Below, piece after piece: positions 4,013 to 54,774 of a DNA stretch of 56,046 nt; the first letter of the stretch is position 1, and each line of letters opens with the position of its first letter. The notes beneath the pieces were generated by a model. That model searched no databases and was not told where the DNA came from. It saw only the letters and a program-made list of their open reading frames with translations. The position numbers and the translations under genes were made by a program. The stretch is from positions 1 to 56,046 of the forward strand of contig JACPHR010000007.1 in NCBI GenBank assembly GCA_016188455.1, given 5' to 3'. Source of the DNA: Candidatus Tayloriibacteriota bacterium (GTDB taxonomy: Bacteria > Patescibacteriota > Minisyncoccia > Phycocordibacterales > SIBU01).

Positions 4013-4235
4013 CTTTCAAACAAGATTACCCTTTTTGTAAAATTTTCACAACTCCGATATCAGCATCCACCCCAGTAGCAGATCCGCCAGCTGGCAGATC
4101 GCTACGGGGCAGGCTTCCACCACATCCCCGTCCTTTACTCCAGAGGAGGGCCCTCCTTTGGAGGACAAACTTCTGTGGCAATTTTGGTGCCGATGATGCG
4201 AAATTATCCATCAAACGAAAACTGTCATTGTGATG

Positions 4236-4925
4236 TCAATCAAGCCCCAAAAGTTCGCGGGCGATTTTTTTAGTTTCTTCTTGAAAGAATTTTTTGATAT
4301 TACCCCAACTGGCGTTAAAAAAAAGTGTGGGCATCGGGTCGTCTTCGGCATCAACAAAATACACCAAACTTTTAAGAATGTGATTTGGATTTTGTTTTAC
4401 GCGATAGTGCCGCTCTGCCCGCCGTATGCTCTCTTTAAGCGGTTGGATGTTTTTACTAATCCAGTACAAATCTACAAAATCGCGTTTTTTACCGCGCTGG
4501 CTAATCGCCGCGATTTTCATGGCGGCGATATCGGGAGGAGTTAAAATAGAAACCGAACCGATTTTGAGCACCGATTCCGCGGGATCAAAAAATGGGTAAG
4601 CAATCAGACTCATTTTCGCCCCCAACAATCTTCCGTAAACCGTTCCCCGGTCAAGCGAGTCTGTTTCCCATTTCCCAGTCGTACTTAATTGTTCCACTAT
4701 TTTCTTTTCGTCAAAAGATTTTTCCGGCGTAAAAAAATCCAGGTCAACGGATTGGCGATGACCGGCTTGGAGTGCCAGCGCCGTGCCACCCGCCAAATAC
4801 CATCCGCCCGACGAAAAAAACGGCGTTATAATACAACGTTTAAAAGCCTCACGCGCCACAGTGGGAAGCGCTTCAAGACGCAACTGTTCCAAAACGCCGG
4901 CATTTATGTGAGAAGAAGCGACCAT
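4236..4925 (-). CDS. AbiEii/AbiGii-type nucleotidyltransferase toxin
   Basis: YLAGGTALALQAGHRQSVDLDFF, MKIAAISQRG and RDFVDLY. Confidence 0.85.
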   Translation of the reverse strand: MVASSHINAGVLEQLRLEALPTVAREAFKRCIITPFFSSGGWYLAGGTALALQAGHRQSVDLDFFTPEKSFDEKKIVEQLSTTGKWETDSLDRGTVYGRLLGAKMSLIAYPFFDPAESVLKIGSVSILTPPDIAAMKIAAISQRGKKRDFVDLYWISKNIQPLKESIRRAERHYRVKQNPNHILKSLVYFVDAEDDPMPTLFFNASWGNIKKFFQEETKKIARELLGLD

Positions 4926-5167
4926 AAAGCTTTTGACTTATCGTGTACCTGACTTCGAGGTAATTCCATCACTCGCTTGATTTCGCTTTTCGGGTAATAC
5001 CGGAAAAGCCAACGCACCTCCTCCGTATTGCCAAAATCAAGAATGCGCTCGATGATGTACACCGCGTGCTTTTCGGGGTCTATGGTTTTCGGGTCCACGT
5101 CCCAAAAAAGCGACTGGCGAAAAACCATCACAGGCAGTTTTTTGGTCTGCTGTTTTTTAACTTTCAT
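4904..5167 (-). CDS. Small partner (putative antitoxin) of the AbiEii-type toxin, DUF6922-like
   Basis: SLFWDVD...YIIERILDFG; overlaps the toxin start. Confidence 0.7.
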   Translation of the reverse strand: MKVKKQQTKKLPVMVFRQSLFWDVDPKTIDPEKHAVYIIERILDFGNTEEVRWLFRYYPKSEIKRVMELPRSQVHDKSKALWSLLLT

Positions 5168-5186
5168 CGCTCTATACTAGCACATT

Positions 5187-5627
5187 TTATGTCTTTTTCC
5201 CAGCCGATTTTTCCACAAACTCTGCTATGTATTTCATATATTCTACATATTGCCCGATACCGCCTGAAATATCATCCATCACAAGTTTTCTTTGAATTTT
5301 CTCATATCCGTGCACTAAGCGATTGCGCAAGCCAACCGAACCTGAAATCTTTTCCGCAAGATCAACCGGCAGGACGCCGTGTTTGCCTAAAATACGAAAC
5401 GTTCCCTCATAATCATCCGACGGTTCAAGTTTAGCGCGAGTCATAATATGCGTATTGATATCAATCGCCGCATCGGCAATAAGTTGAAACAGCCGCTCCA
5501 CAATAAATATCTCCGGGTCATGAAGTTCCATCTTGCCCTGCCTATATTTTTCAAGATATGGCATAAGCTTGCGAAGATACAAACTCATTGCCGCCAGCTT
5601 GCTTTTAATCACATCCTCATTGGGCAT
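5187..5627 (-). CDS. HEPN (DUF86) ribonuclease toxin
   Basis: GLRNRLVHGY (R-X4-H motif); downstream of an MNT gene. Confidence 0.9.
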   Translation of the reverse strand: MPNEDVIKSKLAAMSLYLRKLMPYLEKYRQGKMELHDPEIFIVERLFQLIADAAIDINTHIMTRAKLEPSDDYEGTFRILGKHGVLPVDLAEKISGSVGLRNRLVHGYEKIQRKLVMDDISGGIGQYVEYMKYIAEFVEKSAGKKT

Positions 5628-6049: not shown

Positions 6050-7381
6050 TTAAGAAGCTTTTTTTATTATTTTCACAATACCTTTATCCGCGTCCACTTC
6101 CACCAAATCCTCGTCTTTTACCACTTGAGTAATGACTTTAATGCCGGTCACGCATGGGGTTTTGAGTTCACGGGCGACGATGGCAGCGTGGCAGGTGATA
6201 CCGCCGTCTTCGGTCACAATGGCCGCCGCTTTTTTCATGGCGGGCACGAGCGAAGGGAAGGTCGTATGGGATACCATAATGTCGCCTTGTTTCATTTTGC
6301 CCATTTCCTCGGGCTGATTGACGATTTTTACTATCCCTTTGGCATAGCCGCTACAAGCGCATGTGCCTTTGAATGTATCCTCGCTGCTTTTGACTTCTTC
6401 TTTTTTAATAGTTTTTGATTTAATGAATTTGTCGGCTTCCTCGCCTGTAAGAACGGAGAGTTTGTTGTTCTTACGAATCACAACCGCGTGGATTTTCCGC
6501 CTTTTAATTTCCGCTTTATCGGCTTTTCTGTTGTTAAGCAAAAGGTTTTCAATTTCCGTATGAAGTAGCATATGCGTTTCTTTGACACTTAGGCCAAGAC
6601 GCTTGCTTATTTCATTCATAATCTTATCCAGAACAAAAAAGGCGAAATAACAAGAATCTTTTCGGTATCCTTTGAGAAAAGTGATATCGGCCGCCAGTTC
6701 ATAGACTTTTTGCAAGTCTTTCGGAATCTTTAACTTTTTTATTAAATCCGCCTTTTGTTTTTTAATCTCCTTCGGCCGGTCAACAATCTTTTTGATTTCC
6801 TTTTTTGGGTCAATTCCCTCGCGAATCAGTCCCGACCATACCGACAAATAGTAATCAATTCCGTAAGCCGGACCTAAATAACCAAACGGCGTCCATCGCC
6901 ACTTTTCATAATGCTTTAATATCGCCTCTTTAAGGGAAGGCTTAAGATTGGCGGGAACTTTGGAATAATCTTTAAGTTCTTTAAATATGTCTCCGGCTTC
7001 TTTATCTTCCGATATTTTTTGAACTATTTCCAAAGATTCCAATTCCTCTTTTTGGCCAAAGCTTGTTTTTTCCGATGTGGTGAGAGCGGTAAATACTTCG
7101 GCGGGATTTAACTTTGAATTGTTTACAGAAATTAGAGCTTTGGCTTTTTCAAGAAGTGAATTAGCAAAAGTGCCGCCATAATTGTCCACATACCAAGTAC
7201 TGCCGAGCGAATGTTGGTGAGACTCTTCGTAGGCCGCAAGAACTTTAAGGTAAATGGCCGATAATTCCTTGTTTGTCGCCTTTTTTAAATCTTTCCTCAA
7301 ACTCTTCCTCGCCGCATTGAAACATTCGTCATTTAACTTATAAGACTCTTGATGATTTTTCAGTAGGGTTGTCCTTGCCAA
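6050..7381 (-). CDS. PEP-utilising enzyme, C-terminal part with mobile His domain (second half of a split ppsA-like gene)
   Basis: C-terminal TEDGGITCHAAIVARELKTPCV. Overlaps the upstream PPDK_N ORF out of frame. Confidence 0.8.
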   Translation of the reverse strand: MARTTLLKNHQESYKLNDECFNAARKSLRKDLKKATNKELSAIYLKVLAAYEESHQHSLGSTWYVDNYGGTFANSLLEKAKALISVNNSKLNPAEVFTALTTSEKTSFGQKEELESLEIVQKISEDKEAGDIFKELKDYSKVPANLKPSLKEAILKHYEKWRWTPFGYLGPAYGIDYYLSVWSGLIREGIDPKKEIKKIVDRPKEIKKQKADLIKKLKIPKDLQKVYELAADITFLKGYRKDSCYFAFFVLDKIMNEISKRLGLSVKETHMLLHTEIENLLLNNRKADKAEIKRRKIHAVVIRKNNKLSVLTGEEADKFIKSKTIKKEEVKSSEDTFKGTCACSGYAKGIVKIVNQPEEMGKMKQGDIMVSHTTFPSLVPAMKKAAAIVTEDGGITCHAAIVARELKTPCVTGIKVITQVVKDEDLVEVDADKGIVKIIKKAS

Positions 7382-20012: not shown

Positions 20013-20267
20013 TCAAGAAATATAACGCGCTCTATTTTTGCCATAGATTCGCAGCGCTTCTCTGATAGAAGAAGCTTTTATGGTTTTTCCGGAGCGGTAT
20101 TCTCTAATTCCCTCATTTACCAACGCATCTGCCTCTTCTGCTCGCTTGCCAGTAAGATAGTATGTCGGCACGGCTCTCGCCACAAGCTCCTCGTATTTTT
20201 TAACGGGAAGTATCACCACACCTTCCTCTTTGGCTATTCTGCTTTTTGAAACGGTTATCGTGTTCAT
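20013..20267 (-). CDS. Orphan antitoxin-like small protein
   Basis: VVILPVKKYEEL...EGIREYRSGKT pattern typical of type II antitoxins; no adjacent toxin seen. Confidence 0.55.
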   Translation of the reverse strand: MNTITVSKSRIAKEEGVVILPVKKYEELVARAVPTYYLTGKRAEEADALVNEGIREYRSGKTIKASSIREALRIYGKNRARYIS

Positions 20268-31229: not shown

Positions 31230-32114
31230 CTACAAATTCTTTTCCGCCGCAATGAATTCATCCAGTTCACCCGAGAGCACCTTGTCCACTTGGGCGGTTT
31301 CCACGCCGGTGCGGTGGTCCTTGACCATTTTGTAGGGGTGCAAAACATAGGAGCGGATTTGATTGCCCCATTCTATGGAGGTGGTTTTTGAGATGTACAT
31401 GCCCTTTTCTTTGGCAATACGCTCGGCTTCTTGCAGCTTCCAAAGCTTGCCGCGCAGGATTTCAATGGCTTTTTCTTTGTTCTGGGCCTGACTTCTCTCC
31501 GAGGTAACATGGACCGAAAGTTTCGTGGGAATATGAACAATGCGCACGGCGGTCTCGCGCTTGTTGACATTTTGTCCCCCCGGGCCGCCTGATTTGGCGA
31601 TGGCAACTTCAAGGTCTTTGTCGGCAATGACAATGTCGCTTTGATGAGTTTTTGCGAACTTCGGTATCACCTCCACCATGGAAAACGAGGTGTGCCGTTT
31701 CTTCTGGGCGTTAAAGGGCGAGCTGCGCACCAGGCGGTGCACCCCGCTCTCGTTCTTGAGCGTCCCGTACGCGAGCGCTCCCATAATCTCCATCGTCACA
31801 TTGCGAAATCCGCCGTGGTCATTCTTGTTTTCGTGGACGATAGAAACATTCCATCCTTTCCGCGCGAAAAACTTCCGGTACATTTCAAGAAGCATCGCAG
31901 AAAAATCCTCGGCGTCGTCTCCGCCCGCGCCGGAAAAAATGGTCATGACCGCGTCTCCCCCGTCGTACGAGCTTCCGCCTAGGGCCTCGGCTTTAAGCGT
32001 CTGGAGTTTTTTGATGAGGACTTGCGCCCGAGCCTTGTCCGACCAAAAATCGGGCGCGTTCATCGCCTCTTCAATTCCTTTTATCCGCGCTTCTTTTTTT
32101 TGTTTTTCTTCCAT
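31230..32114 (-). CDS. prfB: Peptide chain release factor 2 (short N-terminus)
   Basis: FWSD, GVHRLVRSSPF (SPF), GPGGQNVN and WGNQIRSYV. Confidence 0.93.
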   Translation of the reverse strand: MEEKQKKEARIKGIEEAMNAPDFWSDKARAQVLIKKLQTLKAEALGGSSYDGGDAVMTIFSGAGGDDAEDFSAMLLEMYRKFFARKGWNVSIVHENKNDHGGFRNVTMEIMGALAYGTLKNESGVHRLVRSSPFNAQKKRHTSFSMVEVIPKFAKTHQSDIVIADKDLEVAIAKSGGPGGQNVNKRETAVRIVHIPTKLSVHVTSERSQAQNKEKAIEILRGKLWKLQEAERIAKEKGMYISKTTSIEWGNQIRSYVLHPYKMVKDHRTGVETAQVDKVLSGELDEFIAAEKNL

Positions 32115-32167
32115 TCGGGTCTGTCTTAATATTTTACAACTTGAAACTTTATAACTTGAAACTACCC

Positions 32168-32455
32168 TGGAGCCACCCCCGAGGAGCGAACTCGGGACCC
32201 CCGCTTTATCCGCCCGAAACGACTGTTTCAGTCGGGCGGGCGAAAGCGGTGCCCCGCCTGCCCTCGCCTGAGCCCACGGTCAGAATTGAACTGACAACCT
32301 ACGGTTTACGATACCGTTGCTCTACCAATTGAGCTACGTGGGCTTGGGCGATGGCGGGCAGGTCTACCAACTGAGCTACTCCGGCTCTAACGGGACCAAC
32401 TACCTGCCCCGTTGGCAAACATTCTGATGTTTTGCTTCGGGGGAGCTAGGGTGGC
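32168..32455 (-). pseudogene. tRNA-Thr(CGT) interrupted by three insertions
   Basis: Removing 32373-32442, 32253-32362 and 32209-32240 yields a 76-nt cloverleaf GCCACCC TA GCTC AGTTGGTA GAGC A CCGCT TTCGTAA AGCGG GGGTC CCGAG TTCGCTC CTCGG GGGTGGC T CCA. Confidence 0.8.
32271..32343 (-). tRNA. tRNA-Thr(CGT), intact, nested
   Basis: GCCCACG/CGTGGGC acceptor stem; ACGGT-ATCGTAA-ACCGT anticodon arm. Confidence 0.9.
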
Positions 32456-32502
32456 GTTTTAACTTTACAAACTTTCAACTTTATAACTTGAAACTGTCTC
32501 GG

Positions 32503-32575
32503 AGCCGTTGTCCGGGATTGAACCGGAGACCTCCGTCTTACCAAGACGACGCTCTACCAACTGAGCTACAACGGC
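32503..32575 (-). tRNA. tRNA-Thr(GGT)
   Basis: GCCGTTG/CAACGGC acceptor stem; TCGTC-TTGGTAA-GACGG anticodon arm. Confidence 0.93.
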
Positions 32576-32665
32576 GTATAAATATAACAAATAACTAATA
32601 ACCGATAACTTATAACGGAAAGAGAGACAACAATATCCTATTTTATTTCCAGCCTTTTTGCAAAG

Positions 32666-33712
32666 CTAGGGATGAAAGAAGAATGCGGCGGCGATAATGA
32701 CGTAAGCAAACACCAGCTGAACCCCCTCGAGCCAGTTGCTCTCGCCGTCTTGTACTATTGTATTAACCACCAAAACCGACATGATAACGGCTACCAATTC
32801 CAAGGTATTGAACACCAGGCTCATCTGGTCCTTGAAAAACAAACTGGCTAGCACCAGAGCGGGGGCGACGAACATGGCAATTTGACTGGCCGAACCGATG
32901 GCAATCTGGAGCGCTAAGTCCATCCGGTTTTTAAGAGCGACAGTGATAGCTGACATGTGTTCGGCGATATTGCCGATAATGGCCACAAACACCACACCGA
33001 CGAAAAGCTCCGTCCAACCAAAACGCGCGACCACGGGCTCAATAGTAGACACTAGCACGTTGCTTGCCCACGAAACGGCCAAAGTTGCCGCCACTAAAAT
33101 GACGACGCTTCTTCTCATGCTCCAATAAGATTCGTAGGTGCCCACTTCCTCGGTATAGAGATGCTTGTGAGTGAATAGTGAAAACCATAAATTGGCAAAA
33201 TAAATGATAATCATGCACACGGCGACAAAGATACTGAGTTTTTCAACGGTTGCCGCGCCGGCTGTAGGAGCAGTTTGCAGAAAAATCGCCGGCATGACTA
33301 AGGCGGTTACCGCCAAGAGCAAGGTGGAAGCACTGGCCAAAGCCGCGGTTTTGTTGAATTGCTGCTTCTTCCGTTTTCGGCCGCCGAAAAACATGGCCAT
33401 GCCCAAAACCAAAAGCAAATTGCCGATGATAGAACCGGTGATGGAAGCCTTGACCACTTCAATCAGCCCGGCCTTGATGGCCAGGACGCCGATAATCAGT
33501 TCCGTGGCGTTACCGAAGGTGGCGTTGAGAAAGCCGCCCAAAGCCGGACCGGTACGGGTGGCGATTTCTTCAGTAGCCTCGCCAATGTACTTTGCCAAAG
33601 GAATAATGGCTAGAGCGGACAGGAAAAAAAGCCAGACCGGCGAAACACCAAGGAGAGTGGCCACAAAGGTAGCCGGGATAAACACGAGGAGCGCGAGAAA
33701 AAATCTATCCAT
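32666..33712 (-). CDS. cax: Calcium/proton exchanger (CAX/ChaA family)
   Basis: NATFGNATE and IIGNIAEH alpha-repeats, SNWLEG; likely start MDRFF. Confidence 0.92.
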   Translation of the reverse strand: MDRFFLALLVFIPATFVATLLGVSPVWLFFLSALAIIPLAKYIGEATEEIATRTGPALGGFLNATFGNATELIIGVLAIKAGLIEVVKASITGSIIGNLLLVLGMAMFFGGRKRKKQQFNKTAALASASTLLLAVTALVMPAIFLQTAPTAGAATVEKLSIFVAVCMIIIYFANLWFSLFTHKHLYTEEVGTYESYWSMRRSVVILVAATLAVSWASNVLVSTIEPVVARFGWTELFVGVVFVAIIGNIAEHMSAITVALKNRMDLALQIAIGSASQIAMFVAPALVLASLFFKDQMSLVFNTLELVAVIMSVLVVNTIVQDGESNWLEGVQLVFAYVIIAAAFFFHP

Positions 33713-34212
33713 GGTAACCACAGAAGTATTGTAATATTTTTTAAAATTGAAGGCAAAGGGCAAGCCCGCTCCGATGGCCATCGGCTCGGAGGTTGCCAGA
33801 AATTCTCAACTTTCAAAACCTGTGGCGTATTTGCATTTTGTGTGCCTCCATTGTCCGTTGAAGAAGCGGCTGGCGCTTTTAATGAGTCGCTTGCCTGTTT
33901 GAAGGTCTCATTGGCGGCTTTGACCGCCGCATTGGTAAGCATGGCGCGCCGTCTGGGCCGCGGCTTTGTAGCCGTCTCTTGCCGCCTGAACCGCTTTTCT
34001 ATAGGTTTCTCGAGCTGTCTTTGCCTAGTCCGTTGAACTAACGGTTTTTGCCACTTCTGTTGACAAGTATCAATACCAATGCTAGGTTGAAAATGGAGGC
34101 GCCTCTAAAACTCAATGATTGGATGTCAAATCTGGCCGGTCTTGAAACCGGCATAGTGGGGACTTGAATCCCTTTTGTCATTGTGGAAAGTGGCCAAACA
34201 AAAAGACAGAAA

Positions 34213-34768
34213 AATGAATAATAAACAAGTGTTGTTCCTGCTCAGGAACGGCCTGATCAACCCGCTCCTCGTTAAAAAGTGGGAAGAGAATAATAAACCA
34301 TGGAAAGCCGAAGAAAACGTCCGTGGGGGAATTGTTCTCAATTGGATAGCCTCGATTTTTTGCTGCTTCGTGGCCATAATGCTCGTACGATTAGCCCCAA
34401 TAATAGTAAGCGCAGAAATTGGGCCAATGTTAGGGTGGCGGTCTCTATGCCTTATGTCATCGGTTCTGCTCTGCTCAGTTATTGGTATTGGCTGGTTGCG
34501 CTTCTTTAGACAAAGCCCGTTTACCCAAGACCTAAGCGAACTTCATCACACCGCCCACCATGATATCTATTGCCTCAACAGAGAGGCAAACTGGCTACTG
34601 GAAGCGGCAGAAGCAGAACTCAAAAGCCAGCAGCTTACTCTGAAACATTTAGAGGACCTACATGGTATTGACAATCTACATACCAAAGCCATCCTTACAA
34701 AATTAAAGAGAACACATGCTACGCTGCTAAATTTTGGGCTCTGCGACGCCAATCAAAGGAGTCCTTAA
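34213..34768 (+). CDS. Hypothetical two-TM protein
   Basis: ORF with two hydrophobic helices, followed by a terminator-like hairpin. Confidence 0.55.
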
Positions 34769-34894
34769 GTGCAATTTTTCTCTTTCCCTCCCGCGTGGCG
34801 CGCCACGCGGGATTTTTTAATAATATATAAACACAGTCGCGGTTTACATATTATTTTCTAATATGTCGGCGTGAGGTATACTGTGCGCAATAAA

Positions 34895-35587
34895 ATGTTT
34901 CGCGCCTTTCTTCAAAAATTGCCGAAAAATGTGGCCGGCGTTTATCTGAGACATAATTGGCTATGGCATCTGGTTGCCATAATACTCACCTATGTTCTGG
35001 TGATTAGCGGCTTTGATTGGTGGTATTTTGAATCCACCCGAGGCGGCCTGTGGCTATCGCTCACCTTGCCCGCGGCCATCATCGGATTTTTTGTGCCGAT
35101 TATCGTGCCGGTCAGTCTGTACCTCTGGGGCGAAGCGCGGAAAGATTCTAAAATCAGAAACGTCGCCGCGGCCGCGGCGCAGGCGGGCATCATCGCCCTG
35201 ATTATTTCTTCAGTCTATAAAGCTTTTACCGGCAGGATACAGCCGGAATTTTTCACCCACCTTTCTACTCTTGATATCAGCCGAGAGTTTCAGTTCGGCT
35301 TCCTGCGGCACGGCGTGTTTTGGGGTTGGCCGTCATCGCACGCGGCGGTGGCTTTCGCGGGGGCAGTAACGTTAGCGCTTCTATATCCGAAAAATAAAAT
35401 TCTGCGCGGCACGTCAATCCTTTACGCCTCATACATCGGCTTCGCCGTATCCATCAGCATCCATTGGTTCTCGGATTTTCTGGCGGGCGCCATCATAGGA
35501 ACGCTCATCGGTTTAGTGGTCGCCAAAAGTTTCCAATCCCAAAACAGGCCCCGCCCCGACGTACGTCGGGGCGGGGCTGGGGTTTAA
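34895..35587 (+). CDS. PAP2 family phosphatase
   Basis: KAFTGRIQP, WPSSHA and IHWFSD. Confidence 0.85.
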   Translation: MFRAFLQKLPKNVAGVYLRHNWLWHLVAIILTYVLVISGFDWWYFESTRGGLWLSLTLPAAIIGFFVPIIVPVSLYLWGEARKDSKIRNVAAAAAQAGIIALIISSVYKAFTGRIQPEFFTHLSTLDISREFQFGFLRHGVFWGWPSSHAAVAFAGAVTLALLYPKNKILRGTSILYASYIGFAVSISIHWFSDFLAGAIIGTLIGLVVAKSFQSQNRPRPDVRRGGAGV

Positions 35588-36012
35588 TGTTTAATGGAAA
35601 ACTGGCGGCTATTTCTACTTCGGTAGAAATAATACAGCGCCAGCGGCGCCGCCCAGTTGGCGGAACGTTCAATAAAATCCAACCAGCCAACGCCAACCAA
35701 AGGCCTGACGAGCGCCGTCCAAAAACCCCAGAATCCCATCCACAACAATAACGGGCGAATCGGCCTGACAAGAATGACAAGAGCCATAATGACATCCGCC
35801 ACGCCTATGATAAGCAATAGGTTAGCGGCCATAGAGGCATCCGCGCCGGTCATTTGACTTATCCATTTTATCCAATCGGCCTTGCCTCCTACTGCCAGCA
35901 GTCCGTGGCCCGTAAATTCACCGGCCACCCCCACGCGCAAAAGCCATTCAATCTTTTTCTCGTTTGTCACGTTATTTTTTTGCAATCTGCTGCCAAAGCC
36001 AGACGCCGACAA
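35584..36012 (-). CDS. Small multi-TM membrane protein (DoxX-like); start uncertain
   Basis: LLRVGVAGEFTGHG...DFIERSANW. Confidence 0.6.
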   Translation of the reverse strand: MSASGFGSRLQKNNVTNEKKIEWLLRVGVAGEFTGHGLLAVGGKADWIKWISQMTGADASMAANLLLIIGVADVIMALVILVRPIRPLLLWMGFWGFWTALVRPLVGVGWLDFIERSANWAAPLALYYFYRSRNSRQFSIKH

Positions 36013-36203
36013 GAATCAAATCAATAAAAATGACAAGCCAAGTGAGAAGGCCGAGCGTGCCGGCGCTTCCCATCATTTCTCCATAGCCATACATCATAGT
36101 AATTTTGTTAACTAATAATAAGTAATATTATATCACGAGTGCAATCAACATATCCGTCTAAATCTCGCCGGCGCAAAACCGCCCAAAGGGGTGTAAAAAG
36201 TTT

Positions 36204-36671
36204 TTATTCGTAACTCAGTTCTATCTTGTCCCCATCTCTCATGACATAGTTTTCGTACTCGGTATTTTCTTTGCCGTTCAGCGTCATGCGCATGTTCTGA
36301 CCGAAAGAGCGCATGTCTTCGCCCCAAATTTTGAAAAATTGTCCAAGAGTCAGGTCTTCTTTTCGCACGGGCCCGTTGGTGAACTCAAAGTGGATGACCC
36401 CAGTCGCGTCGTGCGTATGCACTGCCGCCATCCGCATCTGCGGGTCATAACCGCTAGTACCCGCGTGCTGAGAACCGATGCCGATGTTCGCCGGAATTTC
36501 TTGCTTTACGCCCTTCACGTAAATTGCGAGAGTCGGATGCCAGTGAATGCCGACTTGAGAAACAACATCAGGGTCGTTTGCTTGCAGATTCTGTGACCAC
36601 CAGAGACCGACGATGAAAGTTATTAGAGCGATTCCCCCAATAAGAATTATTTTCATGATTTTAGTTTTCAT
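36204..36671 (-). CDS. Exported putative metal-binding protein
   Basis: N-terminal TM, HWH and HTHD motifs; downstream of the Cu-ATPase. Confidence 0.65.
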   Translation of the reverse strand: MKTKIMKIILIGGIALITFIVGLWWSQNLQANDPDVVSQVGIHWHPTLAIYVKGVKQEIPANIGIGSQHAGTSGYDPQMRMAAVHTHDATGVIHFEFTNGPVRKEDLTLGQFFKIWGEDMRSFGQNMRMTLNGKENTEYENYVMRDGDKIELSYE

Positions 36672-36772
36672 AGATTAATAAACTCCTGCTCGTCCTTATC
36701 CCCGCAGCAAGCTGCCGGGGAATTCTGCGGATAGATTAATGATTCAGCGGCGCTGAACCGAAGCTGCGAAAA

Positions 36773-37171
36773 CTAAAAAATTTTTGGATGCATTAATCCG
36801 CGAGCCATAAAGAGCCGTAAACTGTCATACATGACGATTGCCGGATCGTAAAAAATACGGACGGCCTGAGGGGGTGGGTAGAGAAACCGTAAGTATTGAT
36901 TGAAACGAAGGAAGAAAAACAGCGCCAGCAACAGCATGAATAACATCATCGCGTTCTGGGCGGGAACGGCAGCGAACAGGTTTTGCCACCCACTGAGGTG
37001 TTTCAGCGGATTCATGCCGCACACGGCCTCATTGTGTCCCATGAGAGCACAGCCAACCATATCACCCATATTGCCTTGACCCGCCATCATGCCGGCATGC
37101 GCCGCGCCCGCGGCGCCCGCAAGCAAGAGAACGATAATGAATAGGCCGGCGGATAATTTCGCGAAACGCAT
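36773..37171 (-). CDS. Met/His/Cys-rich membrane protein in the copper cluster
   Basis: MMAGQGNMGDMVGCALMGHNEAVCGMNPLKH. Confidence 0.6.
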   Translation of the reverse strand: MRFAKLSAGLFIIVLLLAGAAGAAHAGMMAGQGNMGDMVGCALMGHNEAVCGMNPLKHLSGWQNLFAAVPAQNAMMLFMLLLALFFFLRFNQYLRFLYPPPQAVRIFYDPAIVMYDSLRLFMARGLMHPKIF

Positions 37172-37179
37172 GATAGTGA

Positions 37180-39258
37180 TTATAACATTTGGCGGCGGAG
37201 CAACAACGCGTTGATTGCCACAATGACTGTGCTCAGGGACATAAATACGGCCGCGAGCCAGGGTTGAAGGATGATGCCCTTCGGCGCCAAAACCCCGGCC
37301 GCCAGCGGAATGGCAACGACGTTATAACCGGTGGCCCAGAAAAGATTCTGCATCATCTTGTTGTAGGTAAGCCTGGAGAGATTAAAGATTTTCGGAATAT
37401 CCCTCGGGTCGTTTTTTACCAAGATAATGCCGGCGGATTCAATCGCCACATTGGTGCCGGCGCCGATGGCAATACCGAGGTCGGCTTGCGCCAGAGCGGG
37501 AGCGTCATTGACGCCATCGCCGACCATGGCCACTTTTTTGCCTTTGCCTTGGAGCAGTTTCACTTTATCCGCTTTCTCACTTGGCATGACTTTGGCGAAA
37601 TACTCGTCCAGGCCAAGCTCTTTTGAGACCCACGCGGCCACATCTTCGGAATCGCCCGTTATCATGGCGGTTTTCAAACCGGCCTGTTTCAAACTCCGCA
37701 CGGCCTCGCGCGATTCCTCGCGGATAATATCGGCCAGCGCAATACTGCCGAGAAGCTTGCCGTCAGCAATCGCGTGAATGACGGTTTTGCCTTGTTTTGA
37801 AAGAGCGTTTATTTTATTTTGGTGCTCATCTGAAAAAGAAATATGGTTTTCTTTAAGAATATTTTCGTTGCCGACAGACACTTCGCTATTCTCAATCCTG
37901 GCCTTCGCGCCTTTGCCGGGAAGACTCCTGAAATTTTTGATGACCGCCAGTTTGATCCGCCGGTTTTCAGCTTCCTTGACCATGGCCCGGGCAAGCGGGT
38001 GTTCGGAATGACTGTTAACCGAGGCGGCGGTTTTTAGCGCCTGGTTTTCAGTCACTCCGCTCGTTGCGACAATCGCGCTGACGCCGAATTCCCCTTTGGT
38101 GAGCGTGCCTGTTTTGTCGAAGAGCACCGTATCAACCTTACGGGCTCCTTCAAGCGCGACCCGTTGTCTGATTAAAAGACCGTGCCGAGCGGCCATGGTC
38201 GTGGAAATGGCGGCTACAAGCGGCACGGCCAGACCAAGAGCGTGGGGGCAGGTAATGACAAGCACGCTCACCAACCGCTCCGTGGCCACCGCGATGCCGG
38301 AGCGCGCCAAAAGCCAGACGATGAATGTCATACCGCCGGCGAAGATGGCGATGACGGTAAGATAAAAAGCCGCCCTGTCGGAAAGCACTTGAAGCCTGGA
38401 TTTAGAGGCTTGAGCGTCCGCCACCAAGCGCCTGACGCCTGAGAGAAATGTTTTTTCTCCGATGGAGTCAACCTCTACCTTGAGACTGCCTTCCCCGTTG
38501 ATTGAACCGGCAATGACGCCGTCCCCGGCCCGTTTCGCCGCAGGTTTAGACTCCCCGGTAAGAATTGACTCATTGACATCGGAGCGGCCCTCGGTGACTT
38601 TGCCGTCAGCCGGCACTTTTGAACCCGGCTTGACCAAAACAACGTCGCCGACTTTAAGGTCGGCAAGCGGCACAAGTTTTGTTTTATCGCCTCGTATGAT
38701 TTCGGCGGTATCCGGCAGCAATTTTGAAAGCTCCTTGAGAGCGCCTTGCGCGCCTTGAACTGACTTCATCTCGACCCAGTGACCGAGGAGCATGATGGTA
38801 ATAAGCGACGACAGCTCAAACAAAAGGTCGTGTTTTGCTCCAGACAGAATCGAAAACACGCTATAGAGATAGGCGGCGATGACGGCGATGGAAATAAGCG
38901 TCATCATTCCGGGGAGCCGGGCTTTGAGCTCACGATAGGCGCTGGTAAGGAAAATCAAGCCGCAGTAGAAAAAGACGATGCTTCCCAAGGCAAGCAGAAC
39001 ATATTCCGACCCGACAAACTTGGGAGCTTGAATTTTAAAAACCGTCATGGCTATTTCCGAATAGAAAAAGATCGGAATGGTCAACGCGAGGGCAATCCAA
39101 AACTTCATCAAAAATGAAGAAGTCTTGTGACCGACATGCTTGTCATGCTCTATGCGGTCAACTTTCTTTTTAGCAGTCGGCACCAGATTCATGCCGCACT
39201 CGGGACAGAGTCCCGGCTTCTCACTTTGGACTTCAGGGTGCATGGGGCAAGTGTACAC
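37180..39258 (-). CDS. copB: Copper-translocating P1B-type ATPase (CopB-like)
   Basis: YTCPMHP, TGES, CPH, DKTGT, GDGVND, YN and MSLST. Confidence 0.9.
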   Translation of the reverse strand: MYTCPMHPEVQSEKPGLCPECGMNLVPTAKKKVDRIEHDKHVGHKTSSFLMKFWIALALTIPIFFYSEIAMTVFKIQAPKFVGSEYVLLALGSIVFFYCGLIFLTSAYRELKARLPGMMTLISIAVIAAYLYSVFSILSGAKHDLLFELSSLITIMLLGHWVEMKSVQGAQGALKELSKLLPDTAEIIRGDKTKLVPLADLKVGDVVLVKPGSKVPADGKVTEGRSDVNESILTGESKPAAKRAGDGVIAGSINGEGSLKVEVDSIGEKTFLSGVRRLVADAQASKSRLQVLSDRAAFYLTVIAIFAGGMTFIVWLLARSGIAVATERLVSVLVITCPHALGLAVPLVAAISTTMAARHGLLIRQRVALEGARKVDTVLFDKTGTLTKGEFGVSAIVATSGVTENQALKTAASVNSHSEHPLARAMVKEAENRRIKLAVIKNFRSLPGKGAKARIENSEVSVGNENILKENHISFSDEHQNKINALSKQGKTVIHAIADGKLLGSIALADIIREESREAVRSLKQAGLKTAMITGDSEDVAAWVSKELGLDEYFAKVMPSEKADKVKLLQGKGKKVAMVGDGVNDAPALAQADLGIAIGAGTNVAIESAGIILVKNDPRDIPKIFNLSRLTYNKMMQNLFWATGYNVVAIPLAAGVLAPKGIILQPWLAAVFMSLSTVIVAINALLLRRQML

Positions 39259-39389
39259 GCCTTACATGTTAGCACACCTTCTTCCCTATCACTATTTTGC
39301 GGTTCTGAAACGTCGCCGGCGGCGACTCAACACAAAATTTTCAAGAGTTTTTCCGCCGGGGCTTTAAGGGATTCCAGAGCGTATAAAAC

Positions 39390-39409
39390 TGCGCGGCTGA
39401 CCGGATTTG
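39390..39409 (-). repeat. Direct repeat of the tRNA-Asp 3' end (att-like)
   Basis: tgcgcggctgaccggatttg is identical to 39572-39591. Confidence 0.8.
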
Positions 39410-39573
39410 CCCGCGACTCAAAGCTCGCCGTCGCTCGCTTTGGTCTGGGCACCGGCTCGCTTGTTTTTTCTGCTGAAAAAACATAGTTCCGCCGTTCAAA
39501 TCCGGACGGAAGTGAAGCGGTTCACTTCCTCCAGCGGCGCAAAATGAAAACGCCCTCTCGGGCGGTCATTTTG

Positions 39574-39648
39574 CGCGGCTGACCGGATTTGAACCGGCGA
39601 CCTCTCCCGTGACAGGGGAGCGCTCTAAACCAGCTGAGCTACAGCCGC
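39574..39648 (-). tRNA. tRNA-Asp(GTC)
   Basis: GCGGCTG/CAGCCGC acceptor stem; CTCCC-CTGTCAC-GGGAG anticodon arm. Confidence 0.93.
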
Positions 39649-39834
39649 ATTGCTATTAACACAAGTCAAATGTAACAGATTTTTCGGGGGTGGGCAATCT
39701 AACAAATTGACCCCAGCACCAGAGGGCAATCGGGCTCGCGCTTCGCGCGACAAGGGATGTGGCTATTCGACACGCTCCTCGCTCGTTGAAATAAAAAGCG
39801 GCCCAAGAGCATGGGGCCGCGACCGACACGAACA

Positions 39835-40344
39835 CTAAAATTTGCAAGAAAGGCCGACACCAGTTAAAACGCGTCCCCCTACGGCGCTGGGAGAATCCCA
39901 GACGAATACGGGAAACAACAACTCCACCCTCGGAGAAAGCCGCCACCGCCTGCCAAAAATATCAGTTTCCTCTTCCCTGCTGGTCAACCGTTCAAGGTGA
40001 ACATAGTAAAGGTTGGGCATCACTTCCTTTGCCGGCAAAATAAGAGGGGTCGGAATTTTTGCTTCAGGAACTTCCACCGGCTTTCGCAACTTGATGCGAA
40101 GAAACTTATTTGTACGAGTATCGGGAAGGCTTGCTCGAGGCCGCGGCGGCAAGGGCGCAAACGACCACTTTGGAATTGCTGCCACTTTTACTACATCGGG
40201 TGTCAGATTAGTCTGACTAGTTTGAAGAGTTTTGGCTCCTTGACACCGCGCTTCCTGCAGCAACAGGAAAACGCTGACCAGTGGGAATATAACACTTTTC
40301 ATAGGTGTCCGAATGGGTTGAAGTTCACTGTCAAAACTGAGCAT
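39835..40344 (-). CDS. Hypothetical secreted protein; start uncertain
   Basis: Signal-like MKSVIFPLVSVFLLL; C-terminus ends in F. Confidence 0.5.
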   Translation of the reverse strand: MLSFDSELQPIRTPMKSVIFPLVSVFLLLQEARCQGAKTLQTSQTNLTPDVVKVAAIPKWSFAPLPPRPRASLPDTRTNKFLRIKLRKPVEVPEAKIPTPLILPAKEVMPNLYYVHLERLTSREEETDIFGRRWRLSPRVELLFPVFVWDSPSAVGGRVLTGVGLSCKF

Positions 40345-40406
40345 GATTGTACCACAAAGAAAGAACCCGCTCCGTTTTTGAAACGGAACGGCAAGAAAGT
40401 CAATTT

Positions 40407-40694
40407 TGGTGCCGGTGAATGGAGTCGCACCATTTTTTAGGGTTTACCCCCACACCAAACATTCGTTATGGTGTGGGGGTTTACTCGCCCGCCTAAATTT
40501 TGATTAGTGACGGAGGTGGGGATCGAACCCACGACCCCGGGCTTATGAGTCCCGTGCTCTACCGACTGAGCTACTCCGTCAAAATTTGGTCTGGTGAATC
40601 CCTCGTTCCCTGCCCTGTACCGAGCTTGGCTCTGGTACTGGGGTACTGTTGCCTGCCCGCCGTAGCTTTATGCGAAGGCGGGAACTACACCGGC
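40407..40694 (-). pseudogene. tRNA(CAT) interrupted by multiple palindromic insertions
   Basis: Removing the inserts gives GCCGGTG TA GTTC AACAGTA GAAC G AGGGA TTCATAA ACCCT AAAA AATGG TGCGACT CCATT CACCGGC A CCA. Confidence 0.72.
40508..40580 (-). tRNA. tRNA(CAT), elongator Met or Ile2, intact, nested
   Basis: GACGGAG/CTCCGTC acceptor stem; CTCATAA loop; GTGGG-TTCGATC-CCCAC T arm. Confidence 0.9.
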
Positions 40695-40830
40695 AATGTT
40701 CACAAAATAACACAACTGTCGGCCTTATTCAATCATTTGTTAATATCTCTTAACGCTTCTCTCTATAATATGGCAGTGCAATTAATACTCTTGATTTGCG
40801 GATAAGAATATGCAATACTACTGGAGTTAT

Positions 40831-40901
40831 AGCGGGGTAGAGTAACAGTAATTCGCAAGGCTCATAACCTTGAGATCCCCGTGCAAATCGGGGCCCCGCA
40901 A
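40831..40901 (+). tRNA. tRNA-Met(CAT), initiator-like
   Basis: 1:72 mismatch (A/A), GCGGGG/CCCCGC stem, CAAGG-CTCATAA-CCTTG; atypical D loop AACAGTA and T loop TGCAAAT. Confidence 0.8.
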
Positions 40902-40949
40902 CAAGCAAAGGAAAAATGCCCTGCCCAGGGCATTTTTCCTTTGCTTGTT
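40900..40949. terminator. Perfect inverted repeat with 24-bp arms after tRNA-fMet
   Basis: aacaagcaaaggaaaaatgccctg-cc-cagggcatttttcctttgcttgtt. Confidence 0.7.
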
Positions 40950-41285
40950 TGCTTTCTTACTTTGAATTACGAAACTGGCGCTTCAAGAACTTCCTCCCGC
41001 TTGCCCCAACGCCAATTTAACAAAACAGATATGCAGTGATTGTCGCGTGTCCATACCCGCCTCTCTCGTCAAAACCCCTCGCGCATCTTTGGTGAAATTG
41101 GTGCGGGGACTTGCCTCAGTCCGGACAAGGCGCGCGGTTTCTTACTTCGTACATTCGTACCGATTCGCCCGCCTGCCATCGCCCAAAGCAACTTACAATA
41201 TGCGTACACGGTTACAGTGTTATAAACATTTTTATTCATCCTATCACTGCTTGTTGCTCCGGCTTTGGCGGGCAGGTAATTCGCA

Positions 41286-54010: not shown

Positions 54011-54774
54011 ATATCAAGGAGACTCCTTGATATTGATATTTTCAAAATCTATCCACTCTTCTAGCATATCGCCAAAATCTGAGAACGAACCAAAATAATC
54101 AGGAAAGGAACTTGGCTCAATAATTAAACCCTCGTCCCTCCTTTGTCCAGAATAATCCTGGAAACTCGAGTACTTGTAGGAATAAAGAAATTTTTTTGCC
54201 GCAGATTTGTCTTTAAGTTTTTTCTCTTTCCAACCAACATCAACAATCCCAATCGGATTGAGATGAATGTAAGCGTATTGATACTTAAGATATTCGTCTG
54301 TGTTCAGATGTTTGGCACGGAATGGTCTATTAAACAAAGTACCCTTTCTTTTATACTTGGCATTGAAGTACATTGAATAGCCAGTCAGTAATTTCCGCAT
54401 GAAAAGACTGAGGCCGTTTCCTTGTTTCTCTTTAACAAGCAAGTGAAAGTGATTCGGCATAATGCACCACGCGCCAATATCAACAATGGTTTTTCCGCCT
54501 CTTGGAATTTCTAGCAAGGAGACTCCTTGATAATTGCTCAGGTGTATGGGTATAGAGCTGTTAGCTGTATATAAAAGAGTGGTAAATCGTTTATGATCAC
54601 CAGAGTCTAAAAAGATTTTCCTTTTTTCTACAGCTCTATCGTAGAGGTGATAATATTCATTTTCCGAAAAATTTAGATTCCTGCCCATTTCTTAATTCTA
54701 CACAAATAATCTTTTTACAGCAAGGAGACTCCTTGCCTTTGAATATCAAGGAGGAATATCAAGGAGACTCCTTG
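54011..54774. repeat. REP-like palindromes caaggag-a-ctccttg (4 copies)
   Basis: At 54015-54029, 54515-54529, 54721-54735 and 54760-54774. Confidence 0.9.
54014..54688 (-). CDS. REP-associated tyrosine transposase (RAYT, Y1 HUH)
   Basis: YYHLYDR, MPNHFHLL (HUH), YSMYFN, YIHLNP and YSSF. Confidence 0.88.
   Translation of the reverse strand: MGRNLNFSENEYYHLYDRAVEKRKIFLDSGDHKRFTTLLYTANSSIPIHLSNYQGVSLLEIPRGGKTIVDIGAWCIMPNHFHLLVKEKQGNGLSLFMRKLLTGYSMYFNAKYKRKGTLFNRPFRAKHLNTDEYLKYQYAYIHLNPIGIVDVGWKEKKLKDKSAAKKFLYSYKYSSFQDYSGQRRDEGLIIEPSSFPDYFGSFSDFGDMLEEWIDFENINIKESP

Follow-up and report, generated by a model that had tools for sequence, protein, structure and literature searches.

On its minus strand, the window (the whole stretch of DNA analysed, 56,046 nt) carries a tRNA-Met(CAT) gene at positions 40694-40407 that is interrupted by three inserts. 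The anticodon insert splits this outer gene between CA and T and carries an inner tRNA-Met between inverted-repeat arms. Each element of the nest listed in the first-pass annotation is present on the minus strand, and the locus with its surroundings reads as follows:

40682-40694, minus: outer tRNA-Met(CAT), positions 1-13 (acceptor 5′ strand, positions 8-9, D-stem 5′ strand), pairing with 40417-40411
40651-40681, minus: hairpin insert 1, related to the family-A repeat and ending in GGCGGGCAGG
40644-40650, minus: outer D loop (ARAGORN cloverleaf)
40609-40643, minus: hairpin insert 2, ending in GGGCAGG
40595-40608, minus: outer D-stem 3′ strand, position 26, anticodon-stem 5′ strand and loop to position 35 (ending in CA)
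40581-40594, minus: left arm of the tRNA cassette, pairing with the right arm (inverted repeat; leader-trailer duplex)
40508-40580, minus: inner tRNA-Met(CAT) (Rfam tRNA, 68.8 bits; ARAGORN)
40484-40507, minus: right arm of the cassette (inverted repeat)
40447-40483, minus: family-B hairpin CCCCCACACC...GGTGTGGGGG, with a TAAA direct repeat on both sides
40407-40446, minus: rest of the outer tRNA-Met, with anticodon position 36 onward, T arm, acceptor 3′ strand and encoded CCA
40831-40902, plus: adjoining initiator-like tRNA-Met, divergent from the outer gene
41169-41276, minus: family-A arms that enclose 90 nt of non-tRNA sequence, a relative of the cassette without cargo

Apart from its tRNA, the anticodon insert consists of 38 nt of arms and a 37-nt repeat hairpin. 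The latter, the family-B hairpin, is a later insert; it has about nine copies in the genome, which agree in the outer stem and vary in their palindromic interior. Hairpins related to the left arm lie at C7:11087-11106 and C1:25057. Hairpin insert 1 has partial copies on contigs C1, C4 and C23 of the genome and a 31-nt, 100% identical match in the relative G026, and hairpin insert 2 finds matches of 86-88% in the relatives G024 and G051.

After scripted removal of the three inserts, ARAGORN draws the outer gene as a 74-nt tRNA-Met(CAT) cloverleaf whose sole mismatch is A.A at 31:39. Among 625 combinations of insert boundaries, 148 yield a tRNA, and all 148 are called Met(cat) by ARAGORN. The outer D loop has the same seven letters as that of the adjoining tRNA-fMet, and the outer 3′ part (40407-40446) gives 83-84% matches to intact tRNAs adjoining tRNA-fMet in the relatives G046 and G033. 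At the equivalent spot in G046, an intact homologue of the outer gene (locus L011) is divergent from tRNA-fMet and identical to the outer gene in its acceptor and D stems. Because the sequence becomes a canonical tRNA-Met(CAT) once the inserts are removed and has this intact homologue, the outer gene was once a real tRNA gene. The first-pass impression of a native-looking outer gene, which hung on the excised sequence behaving as a tRNA, is thereby borne out. Assignment of the outer CAT gene to tRNA-Ile2 (lysidine) was ruled out: TilS (PF01171) gave no match above the cut-off in any of the 61 genomes searched (controls positive in 14 of 14), and a tRNA-Ile(TAT) is present.

The host genome is of CPR type, measures 0.89 Mb (893 kb), is 98% complete and encodes 45 tRNAs; an Rfam scan of the window returned six tRNAs and nothing else at the gathering threshold. 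Only two of the 45 have a CAT anticodon, and since the other is initiator-like (ARAGORN), the inner tRNA-Met is the sole elongator tRNA-Met of the genome. It is 99% identical to a free-standing copy in the relative G002. That a genome of this completeness holds no other elongator tRNA-Met argues for the inner gene as the working one, and the best reading of these sequences is a functional inner gene within a relic.

At least four such nests occur in the genome: the Met nest and a Thr-CGT nest, both in the window, a Thr-TGT nest on contig C21 and a Pro-TGG nest on contig C22. The latter two likewise pair a cognate inner and outer tRNA. The Thr-CGT nest has three layers:

32168-32455, minus: Thr-CGT nest, whole locus
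32455-32443, minus: 5′ part of the resident allele
32442-32403, minus: hairpin
32385-32363, minus: 23-nt 5′ fragment of a further allele
32362-32344 and 32270-32253, minus: family-A arms
32343-32271, minus: inner tRNA-Thr(CGT)
32240-32209, minus: 32-nt hairpin in the anticodon, at a break between CG and T (35/36)
32208-32168, minus: 3′ part of the resident allele

This locus had been described as split at 35/36, like the Met locus. A break between CG and T does exist at that position, but it holds only a hairpin, and the inner tRNA sits in the D stem at 23/24. A simpler Thr-CGT nest with an intact outer gene is found in G046 (L014), and in relatives intact homologues of the resident Thr allele come after tRNA-Thr(GGT). 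The outer halves of the Thr-TGT nest found no match in 60 relatives at E<=1e-6. A deletion scan around all 45 tRNAs yielded robust outer genes only at the C21 and C22 nests; hits for Trp on C20 (six offsets) and Ala on C27 look like artefacts of neighbouring tRNAs. At the Ala-CGC locus on C27, arms that pair with each other accompany a 3′ tRNA-Ala remnant, from which the scan reconstructed no outer gene. Run over the whole genome with introns allowed, ARAGORN found the C21 nest and mis-parsed the C22 nest; its remaining intron calls are chimeras of neighbouring tRNAs or false (C24:1395-1649). A reverse transcriptase near the C21 nest reads as part of a diversity-generating retroelement. Most inner tRNAs lack an encoded CCA, which argues against retro-copies of mature tRNA.

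To survey related genomes we used the conserved arm pair CCTGCCCGCC...GGCAGGCGGG as search pattern, so that the counts cover the loci it retrieved. In the order sample it found seven arm-bracketed places in 6 of 401 genomes, every one a tRNA inside a cognate tRNA, whereas the reversed control pattern found 0 places. In the phylum sample, 21 of 29 arm-bracketed places hold a tRNA (15 of 401 genomes), and named public records added 23 further places, all labelled CPR or labelled automatically. De-duplication left 47 distinct places with an arm-bracketed tRNA. All 47 lie inside tRNA genes or their remnants and none is intergenic. The outer anticodon equals the inner one in 39 of the 47 (35 by script, comprising 26 from ARAGORN and 9 from the loop motif, and 4 by eye); none is clearly different, with one decayed case doubtful. 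Inner and outer genes are co-oriented in all readable cases. These data, together with the two further cognate nests of the genome, strongly support the earlier proposal that same-anticodon nesting reflects a mechanism rather than chance, and the random pairing that would have spoken against it is not seen among the loci retrieved. In contrast, the 35/36 split does not hold as a rule: judged from flanks read by eye, insertion sites range from 21/22 (n=10) and 23/24 (n=15) through the anticodon loop (33/34-37/38, n=21) to 39/40 (n=1).

The outer genes form a decay series from pristine to fragmentary. About half are still perfect (pristine at C21, C22, L058, L072-L074, L120 and L128), and about half are truncated (L069, L071, L080 and the Ile-GAT locus on C4) or bear further hairpins in the anticodon or D loop (the Met locus, L061, L070 and L086-L088). 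Identity between inner and outer genes is 0.65-0.82 in 13 of the 14 pairs compared, values that are rough since script boundary offsets are inexact, and the nearest matches of inner alleles are the inner or free-standing alleles of other genomes rather than the outer gene around them. Inner and outer sequences are thus usually different alleles. The Thr-CGT nest at D-stem position 23/24 recurs in many distant lineages, where the outer genes have diverged yet are intact. A literature search revealed no account of nested cognate tRNA genes or of this arm motif; a term search of PMC11270868 turned up neither tRNA, hairpin nor palindrome.

The arms belong to an abundant REP-like family of mobile hairpins. 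CCTGCCCGCC...GGCAGGCGGG is the commonest arm pair of the cassettes, and the Met locus uses related arms. Exact arm 10-mers occur 10-18 times each in the 893 kb, and canonical 39-45-nt hairpins number 10 in the genome versus 0 in five shuffles. Cargo-less hairpins are scattered through the genome, one of them in frame within the topA reading frame. Different classes of the phylum share a conserved arm sequence in which paired positions co-vary (CGCC/GGCG versus AGCC/GGCT). Of the two marks of a MITE (a non-autonomous DNA transposon), terminal inverted repeats and a target-site duplication, the tRNA cassettes show the first and lack the second, and their junctions share no direct repeat; the TAAA repeat flanks the family-B hairpin. 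A gene that may act on such repeats lies in the window:

54014-54691, minus: RAYT/IS200-like Y1 transposase gene (Pfam PF01797, 31.8 bits, above cut-off)

Its product scores 45.3 bits against NCBIfam NF047646 'REP-associated tyrosine transposase', below the cut-off of 80. We regard the gene as a candidate trans-acting mobiliser of the hairpin repeats. Genes for PF01797 Y1 transposases number four in this genome (G000), two in G013 and four in G046. The full arm motif is absent within 600 nt of the four Y1 genes, where only fragments with one mismatch occur. The lack of flanking repeats at the Y1 genes and the NF047646 score below the cut-off count against Y1 mobilisation.

On the basis of these results, we think it fairly probable that the locus is one copy of a DNA-level replacement cassette widespread in CPR/Patescibacteria, in which the inner gene works and the outer one is a relic. 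The cassette would be a GC-clamped palindromic repeat of REP/RPE-like character with a complete tRNA gene in the loop between its arms, placed inside a resident tRNA gene of the same anticodon and orientation. The whole locus is presumably transcribed from the promoter of the resident gene, and the inner tRNA presumably released by RNase P and 3′ processing, while the split outer gene would no longer make tRNA and would gather hairpin inserts as it decays. Anticodons may match because a cell could survive the loss of a single-copy tRNA gene only when the insert supplies an equivalent one. The nested allele may also spread between genomes by recombining through the outer tRNA halves, and the hairpins are probably mobilised by the RAYT/IS200-like Y1 transposases that these genomes encode. 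The recurrence, throughout the phylum, of a gene set inside one of its own kind points to an undescribed way of replacing tRNA genes. The first-pass annotation had left the choice between targeted replacement and splicing open. Replacement is favoured by the decay series, the extra hairpins, the different alleles and the lack of matches to EndA, RtcB or a ribozyme (below), but the word 'targeted' goes beyond what these data demonstrate, as the cognate pattern would also arise if non-cognate insertions did not survive, or if nests spread by recombination through the outer halves. Random transposition with selection nevertheless explains poorly why all 47 tRNA cassettes are confined to tRNA genes when cargo-less hairpins are dispersed, so that some targeting, or formation in place, seems needed. 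The perfect outer genes and the recurrent Thr-CGT design at 23/24 could mean that the outer gene is under selection. How a tRNA enters the hairpin loop is a step for which replacement gives no account.

Formation in place, which we consider unlikely, would run as follows: a hairpin enters a tRNA gene, which is copied into the loop during that event or in the course of its repair. Inner and outer genes would be the same at the start and would later diverge by decay, gene conversion or recombination with alleles of other cells. This would explain why the 47 cassettes all lie within cognates and have no intergenic copies. In agreement, the inner tRNA and outer halves of Pro-CGG in G013 are letter-identical, which fits self-duplication better than foreign cargo; at L074 and L084, inner and outer genes share identical stretches adjoining the insert, and two adjacent nests in G732 have the same outer hairpins and matching pairs (GGC/GGC and CGC/CGC). 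Against it stand the low identities in 13 of 14 pairs and the kinship of inner alleles with those of other genomes. In the C21 and C22 nests, moreover, every stem differs between inner and outer gene yet all pair perfectly, which is hard to reconcile with the simple decay of a duplicate and is not what neutral decay yields. Formation in place also requires the order 5′ half, arm, whole gene, arm, 3′ half, for which we know of no mechanism.

At the RNA level, the cassette could be an intervening sequence, with the outer pre-tRNA cut at the base of the arm helix and either rejoined or used in two pieces, so that one locus gives two isoacceptor tRNAs in the manner of a tRNA-encoding bacterial intron. 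The flawless state of many outer genes after insert removal, the conservation of the arms across classes with co-varying paired positions, and the constant co-orientation of inner and outer genes all fit this possibility. So do the insertion sites, since archaeal tRNA introns occur in the D arm and the anticodon loop, including 37/38. We nonetheless judge it improbable. RtcB (PF01139) and EndA (PF01974) gave no match in any of the three genomes searched, with controls positive in archaea. As read by eye, the arms pair to their very ends, abutting the exon bases, and form no bulge-helix-bulge. Rfam returned no intron or ribozyme for 40300-40800 at E<=1, where besides tRNA only a chance match of 23.6 bits appeared. 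About half of the outer genes are truncated or bear further hairpins, and the Met locus would need three precise excisions; hairpins read through in frame in a protein-coding frame are, at least there, not removed. No RNA run was found to match 32000-41000, and the candidate split matches in contigs had short sides and came from tRNAs of other organisms. That the cassette represents a new class of tRNA-encoding bacterial intervening sequence, whose arm helix is recognised by a hypothetical enzyme, is a doubtful proposition. If true, the inner tRNA would be released and the outer one rejoined or used in two pieces, with two isoacceptors from one promoter.

A nuclease could also drive allele replacement. 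Homing-type endonucleases with tRNA genes as their targets would then favour alleles whose site a cassette has broken, with the inner gene as a resistant spare, and the cassette would spread like an intron by double-strand-break repair, only without splicing. In G046, tRNA-Thr(GGT) and the nested Thr-CGT have between them an ORF that resembles an HNH endonuclease, a label that we presume from its motif, and the start of a homologous ORF follows tRNA-Thr(GGT) in G013. In relatives, inserts of about 135-235 nt, presumably group-I-like by their core motif, interrupt the Thr-GGT, Met and Asp tRNA genes, and the absence of target-site duplication at the cassettes fits such a route; introns of about 190 nt in relatives have no Rfam match at E<=0.1. 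However, reading of the ORFs up to about 2.5 kb from each of the four G000 nests revealed no endonuclease gene, and the many tRNA species and several sites would demand many nuclease specificities, which leaves little likelihood for this explanation. By reading, the ORFs around the nests are housekeeping genes; Pfam confirmed RF2 and a cation exchanger among five ORFs of the window and assigned no family to the two adjoining the Met locus.

Finally, an assembly artefact, in which contigs are misjoined through conserved tRNA words, has a negligible chance of being correct: Logan contigs do break within the inner tRNA, at 40540/40545 and at 32307-32315, but the flanking contigs each hold one arm and one outer half that pair across contigs, their depths are alike, and the same architecture occurs in dozens of independent assemblies. 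Contigs from three sequencing runs match both Met junctions without differences (39598-40540 and 40545-41000). As these runs belong to one study, possibly the source of the window, they do not count as independent support, which comes instead from the same design in the other assemblies. Misassembly, raised at the outset as an objection, is answered on these grounds.

The proposed replacement cassette resembles several known systems in part. In REP/REPIN-RAYT systems, the RAYT gene is flanked by its own REPs and the repeats are extragenic. The short, GC-rich, imperfect palindromes with many genomic copies and the IS200-like Y1 genes recall these systems, whereas here hairpins lie within tRNA genes and the topA frame and hold a whole tRNA in the loop, the 10-mer arms are common to a phylum, and the Y1 genes are not flanked by repeats. 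To our knowledge, there is no report of REPs with genes as cargo or of REPs placed in cognate genes. Rickettsia palindromic elements (RPEs) are similarly tolerated in genes and read through in frame, as in topA here, a likeness of behaviour; they differ in that, as far as we know, they bring no cargo with them and are no substitute for the gene they invade. Group I introns likewise occupy anticodon loops of tRNA genes and lack a target duplication, and relatives have introns in Thr-GGT at 36/37. Yet the 5′ exon of group I introns ends in U and here ends in A or G; such introns have a conserved catalytic core of about 200 nt or more that a covariance model can recognise, and the insert without its tRNA measures only about 40-75 nt and has no Rfam intron match. 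A spare gene makes good the harm done by the insert, a task that falls to self-splicing in group I introns. Archaea possess bulge-helix-bulge (BHB) tRNA introns, whose borders with the exons show two 3-nt bulges and a 4-bp helix between them, as well as split tRNAs and introns that move among tRNA genes. Multiple inserts in D arm and anticodon and related inserts across tRNA genes are common to both, but the present host is a bacterium, BHB geometry (by reading) and EndA/RtcB (three genomes) were not found, and the insert brings a whole cognate tRNA gene. Integrative elements targeting tRNA genes restore the 3′ part, and thus also disrupt a tRNA gene while supplying what keeps that tRNA. In contrast to them, the inserts here (116-148 nt) have no integrase and no att-type direct repeats, and they supply a whole nested gene instead of a replacement 3′ end.

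If the replacement reading is true, a mobile palindromic element may break an essential single-copy gene and bring a working copy along. We know of no other mobile element with compensation of this sort; self-splicing introns deal with gene disruption by other means, as do integrases that rebuild the 3′ end of a tRNA. Such replacement would explain the turnover of tRNA alleles in CPR genomes and the many tRNA fragments beside their tRNA genes, and annotators should take nested tRNA halves for relics or unusual precursors, not for artefacts. The survey raises the question why 39 of 47 pairs are cognate and none is clearly non-cognate. Guidance of the pairing by the cargo would make this a natural replace-and-rescue system, whereas splicing of the outer gene would make it a new kind of bacterial intron.

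Three inserts interrupt the outer tRNA gene of the Met locus (40694-40407, minus strand), whose acceptor stem (7 bp), D stem and T arm are present together with an encoded CCA.

Features of the Met locus and its neighbour
40681-40651, minus: hairpin insert at one edge of the D loop (sequence reading)
40643-40609, minus: hairpin insert at the other edge of the D loop (sequence reading)
40594-40447, minus: composite insert of 148 nt after anticodon position 35 (sequence reading)
40580-40508, minus: inner tRNA-Met (ARAGORN, Rfam)
40831-40902, plus: initiator-like tRNA-Met (ARAGORN, Rfam)

All parts that the first-pass annotation had described, D-loop hairpins and an anticodon insert holding an intact tRNA(CAT), are present. 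Within the composite insert the intact tRNA-Met lies between a left arm of 14 nt and a right arm of 24 nt, which pair with each other, and a separate CCCCCACACC/GGTGTGGGGG hairpin follows the right arm; we refer to such a tRNA gene between arms within an interrupted tRNA gene as a nest. The first-pass reading depended on the joined outer sequence folding as a tRNA. With the three inserts excised by script, ARAGORN finds a 74-nt tRNA-Met(CAT) cloverleaf with one A.A mismatch; among boundary variants of the excision, 148 of 625 were called tRNAs, all 148 as Met(cat). At the equivalent place the related genome G046 carries an intact tRNA, divergent from tRNA-fMet, whose acceptor and D stems are identical to those of the outer gene, which is therefore the resident gene of this site and native, as had been proposed. 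Since TilS is missing from the whole order (no PF01171 match over the cut-off in 61/61 genomes, the source genome and 60 relatives), identification of the outer gene as tRNA-Ile2 was rejected in favour of a Met paralogue. As the genome also encodes tRNA-Ile(TAT), it probably reads AUA without lysidine. The sole elongator tRNA-Met of the genome is the inner gene; it shares 99% identity with a free-standing copy in the relative G002, where the outer halves are absent.

The host, a bacterium of the CPR/Patescibacteria type, has a small genome; its assembly (893 kb, 98% complete, 31 contigs, of which the window is C14) encodes 45 tRNAs and a tmRNA, and all 45 working tRNAs are uninterrupted. ARAGORN and Rfam each count six tRNAs over the window. 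In the initiator-like tRNA-Met, A1 is mismatched with A72, the D loop lacks GG and the T loop is of the TGC type, which several further tRNAs of the genome share. The last 20 nt of tRNA-Asp recur exactly 182 nt downstream (39390-39409, 39572-39591), with an inverted copy of its T arm at 39485-39505; this is a further tRNA remnant.

Three runs of a single groundwater study yielded contigs that cover each junction and show no differences; this support is non-independent in that the study may be the source of the window. The read-run contigs break only within the conserved core of the inner tRNA, and on either side carry one arm and one outer half each, pairing with those opposite. The misassembly that the first-pass annotation had considered is not borne out, and an artefact is very unlikely because the same design is found in many other assemblies.

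The Thr-CGT locus (32455-32168) has three layers.

Parts of the Thr locus
Resident allele; in relatives its homologues are intact and lie after tRNA-Thr(GGT)
Hairpin after the 5' strand of the D stem
23-nt 5' fragment of a second allele
Inner tRNA-Thr(CGT) between family-A arms, situated in the D stem at 23/24
32-nt hairpin at CG|T

Of the 35/36 split thought to be common to the Met and Thr loci, the CG|T break is real, but it holds only the 32-nt hairpin, the inner tRNA-Thr lying at 23/24. A simple version occurs in G046, where a flawless outer Thr-CGT gene is interrupted solely at 23/24 by arms and an inner Thr-CGT (90% identity to the window over 136 nt). The sequences downstream of the outer tRNA-Thr(CGT) and of tRNA-Thr(GGT) (32138-32208 and 32470-32540) contain AACTTGAAAC-type repeats and are 70% alike over 71 nt, suggesting that the Thr genes were once duplicated in tandem, long ago.

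Scanning all 45 tRNAs for leader-trailer pairing and then reading the sequences revealed two pristine nests elsewhere in the genome, Thr-TGT within Thr-TGT on contig C21 (TG|T) and Pro-TGG within Pro-TGG on C22 (TG|G). An outer-type Pro-TGG gene is intact in four relatives, and its homology to the outer Pro-TGG stops exactly at 35/36. Fragmentary cases concern Ile-GAT (C4), Arg-CCG (C29) and Ala-CGC (C27). At C4:5570-5790, a second Ile-GAT gene is represented upstream of tRNA-Ile(GAT) by its 5' half, which stops at anticodon position 35; downstream of tRNA-Ile(GAT) come some hairpins and a fragment beginning at position 36. At C29:10586-10880, a 17-nt repeat of the 3' end of tRNA-Arg(CCG) lies downstream of this gene, together with the 3' part of another Arg-CCG gene. 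Upstream of the Thr-TGT nest, at a distance of about 2 kb (C21:~3300-5490), a reverse transcriptase ORF comes after two near-repeat C-terminal coding segments, an arrangement that reads like a diversity-generating retroelement.

Nests recur well beyond this genome. Of 401 genomes sampled from the order, 6 contain the pattern CCTGCCCGCCAT-N(80-108)-CAGGCGG, at 7 places altogether (reversed control, 0), and all seven hold a tRNA within a cognate tRNA (Thr-CGT twice, Pro-TGG, Pro-CGG, Pro-GGG, Arg-GCG, Arg-TCT). A looser pattern, run on 401 genomes of the phylum, matched 29 places in 20 of them (control, 5 matches); 21 of the 29, in 15 genomes, hold a tRNA. Among the 120 matches listed for named public genomes, at least 23 carry a tRNA, all in low-GC records labelled mostly as CPR groups (among them Parcubacteria, Saccharibacteria, Uhrbacteria and Doudnabacteria), the rest bearing automatic labels (for example 'uncultured Gammaproteobacteria', 'bacterium'); no tRNA was found between arms in the GC-rich actinomycete or Desulfobacterales matches listed. 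Pooling and de-duplication left at least 150 distinct matches, at least 47 with a tRNA between the arms. For 26 of these ARAGORN calls an outer tRNA of the same anticodon, 9 have the same anticodon-loop motif in the flank, and 12 were unreadable by script. Four of the 12 show the same anticodon by eye (L061, L063, L083, L201), in three a hairpin occupies the outer loop (L070, L087, L170), in four the outer gene is truncated or runs off the contig (L071, L078, L080, L112), and L082 pairs an inner CAG with a decayed outer arm reading like CAA. Thus the anticodon match holds beyond this window; random pairing was not seen, and no readable pair among the matches listed differs in amino acid. Inner and outer genes are co-oriented in all readable cases among these matches, the hairpin taking either orientation relative to the tRNA. 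The shared 35/36 split fails as a rule: sites read from the flanks fall at 23/24 (15), 21/22 (10), the anticodon loop 33/34-37/38 (21) and 39/40 (1).

The best-supported reading of the nests is a replacement at the DNA level. A hairpin repeat carrying a tRNA gene in its loop would come to sit in the resident cognate gene, and the inner gene would take over while the outer one decays; transcription would start from the resident promoter, with RNase P and 3' processing freeing the inner tRNA. This reading rests on four observations. Outer genes form a decay series from pristine through hairpin-riddled to truncated; extra hairpins accumulate only in interrupted tRNA genes and in none of the 45 working ones of this genome; inner and outer genes are distinct functional alleles rather than decayed duplicates, because their rough identities are usually 0.65-0.82 and on C21 and C22 no stem is the same in both genes although all pair perfectly; and known splicing parts were not found in the three genomes searched for RtcB and EndA. 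Of the two options proposed at first, targeted tRNA replacement and splicing, replacement is thus favoured. Selection alone could account for cognate pairing, as a non-cognate insertion into a single-copy tRNA gene would be lethal. It fails to account for the finding that, among the matches listed, none of the at least 47 tRNA cassettes is intergenic, while cargo-less hairpins lie scattered. Three further processes might fill this gap. Nested alleles might spread by recombination through the outer halves.

Nests may also form in place, as suggested by the relative G013, in which the inner gene matches the outer halves letter for letter; the usual divergence of the two genes is noted above. Nucleases cutting tRNA genes may drive the process: adjoining the G046 nest, between tRNA-Thr(GGT) and the nested tRNA-Thr(CGT), is an ORF of ~150 aa (L014:1640-2090, minus) with Cys pairs and a DH...N...N motif, a candidate HNH endonuclease. 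A start homologous to this ORF follows tRNA-Thr(GGT) in G013 (L032:~497-591). An RNA-level role is improbable. In its favour, distant lineages repeatedly show outer genes that are intact, and co-variation is seen at paired positions of the arms; against it, RtcB and EndA had no match in 3/3 genomes searched, Rfam gave no ribozyme match in 40300-40800, and reading revealed no bulge-helix-bulge geometry at the nests. Separately, tRNA-Thr(GGT) genes of relatives (L027-L034, for example L028:142-403 and L032:154-422) contain 177-204-nt inserts after anticodon position 36; these share what we presume to be a motif of group I intron cores and gave no Rfam intron match at E<=0.1. Met and Asp tRNA genes of other relatives have inserts of 135-230 nt (ARAGORN).

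The arms belong to wider hairpin families. Family A (CCTGCCCGCC...GGCAGGCGGG, both orientations) forms 10 canonical hairpins of 39-45 nt in the source genome versus 0 in shuffles, with 10-18 occurrences of each exact 10-mer in 0.89 Mb; the hairpin copies of family B (CCCCCACACC...GGTGTGGGGG), about nine in number, vary in their palindromic interiors; and the Met cassette arms resemble a third type found on C7 and C1. One family-A-like hairpin in topA is read through in frame; GC-rich hairpin repeats in topA (C20:~20130-20175) and tsf (C21:~6740-6770) keep the reading frame open and read as Pro/Ala/Gly-rich stretches. Four IS200/RAYT-like Y1 transposases are encoded, one at window 54014-54691. 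In records named Desulfobacterales (L097, L110, L136, L149), the 10-mer arms form tandem arrays and surround non-tRNA interiors, flanked by TTCGAAT-like repeats; the hairpin family reaches beyond the CPR, into another phylum.

REP/REPIN-RAYT systems, Rickettsia palindromic elements, bacterial tRNA group I introns, archaeal tRNA introns and tRNA-targeting integrative elements each resemble pieces of the nests; a defining feature of each was examined, and for part of them it is absent here. The literature searched, including a paper on CPR rRNA insertions covered by term search, yielded no description of nested cognate tRNA genes. We file the system as a palindromic mobile repeat with self-compensating tRNA cargo; if cargo-guided targeting or splicing were shown, it would be categorically new.
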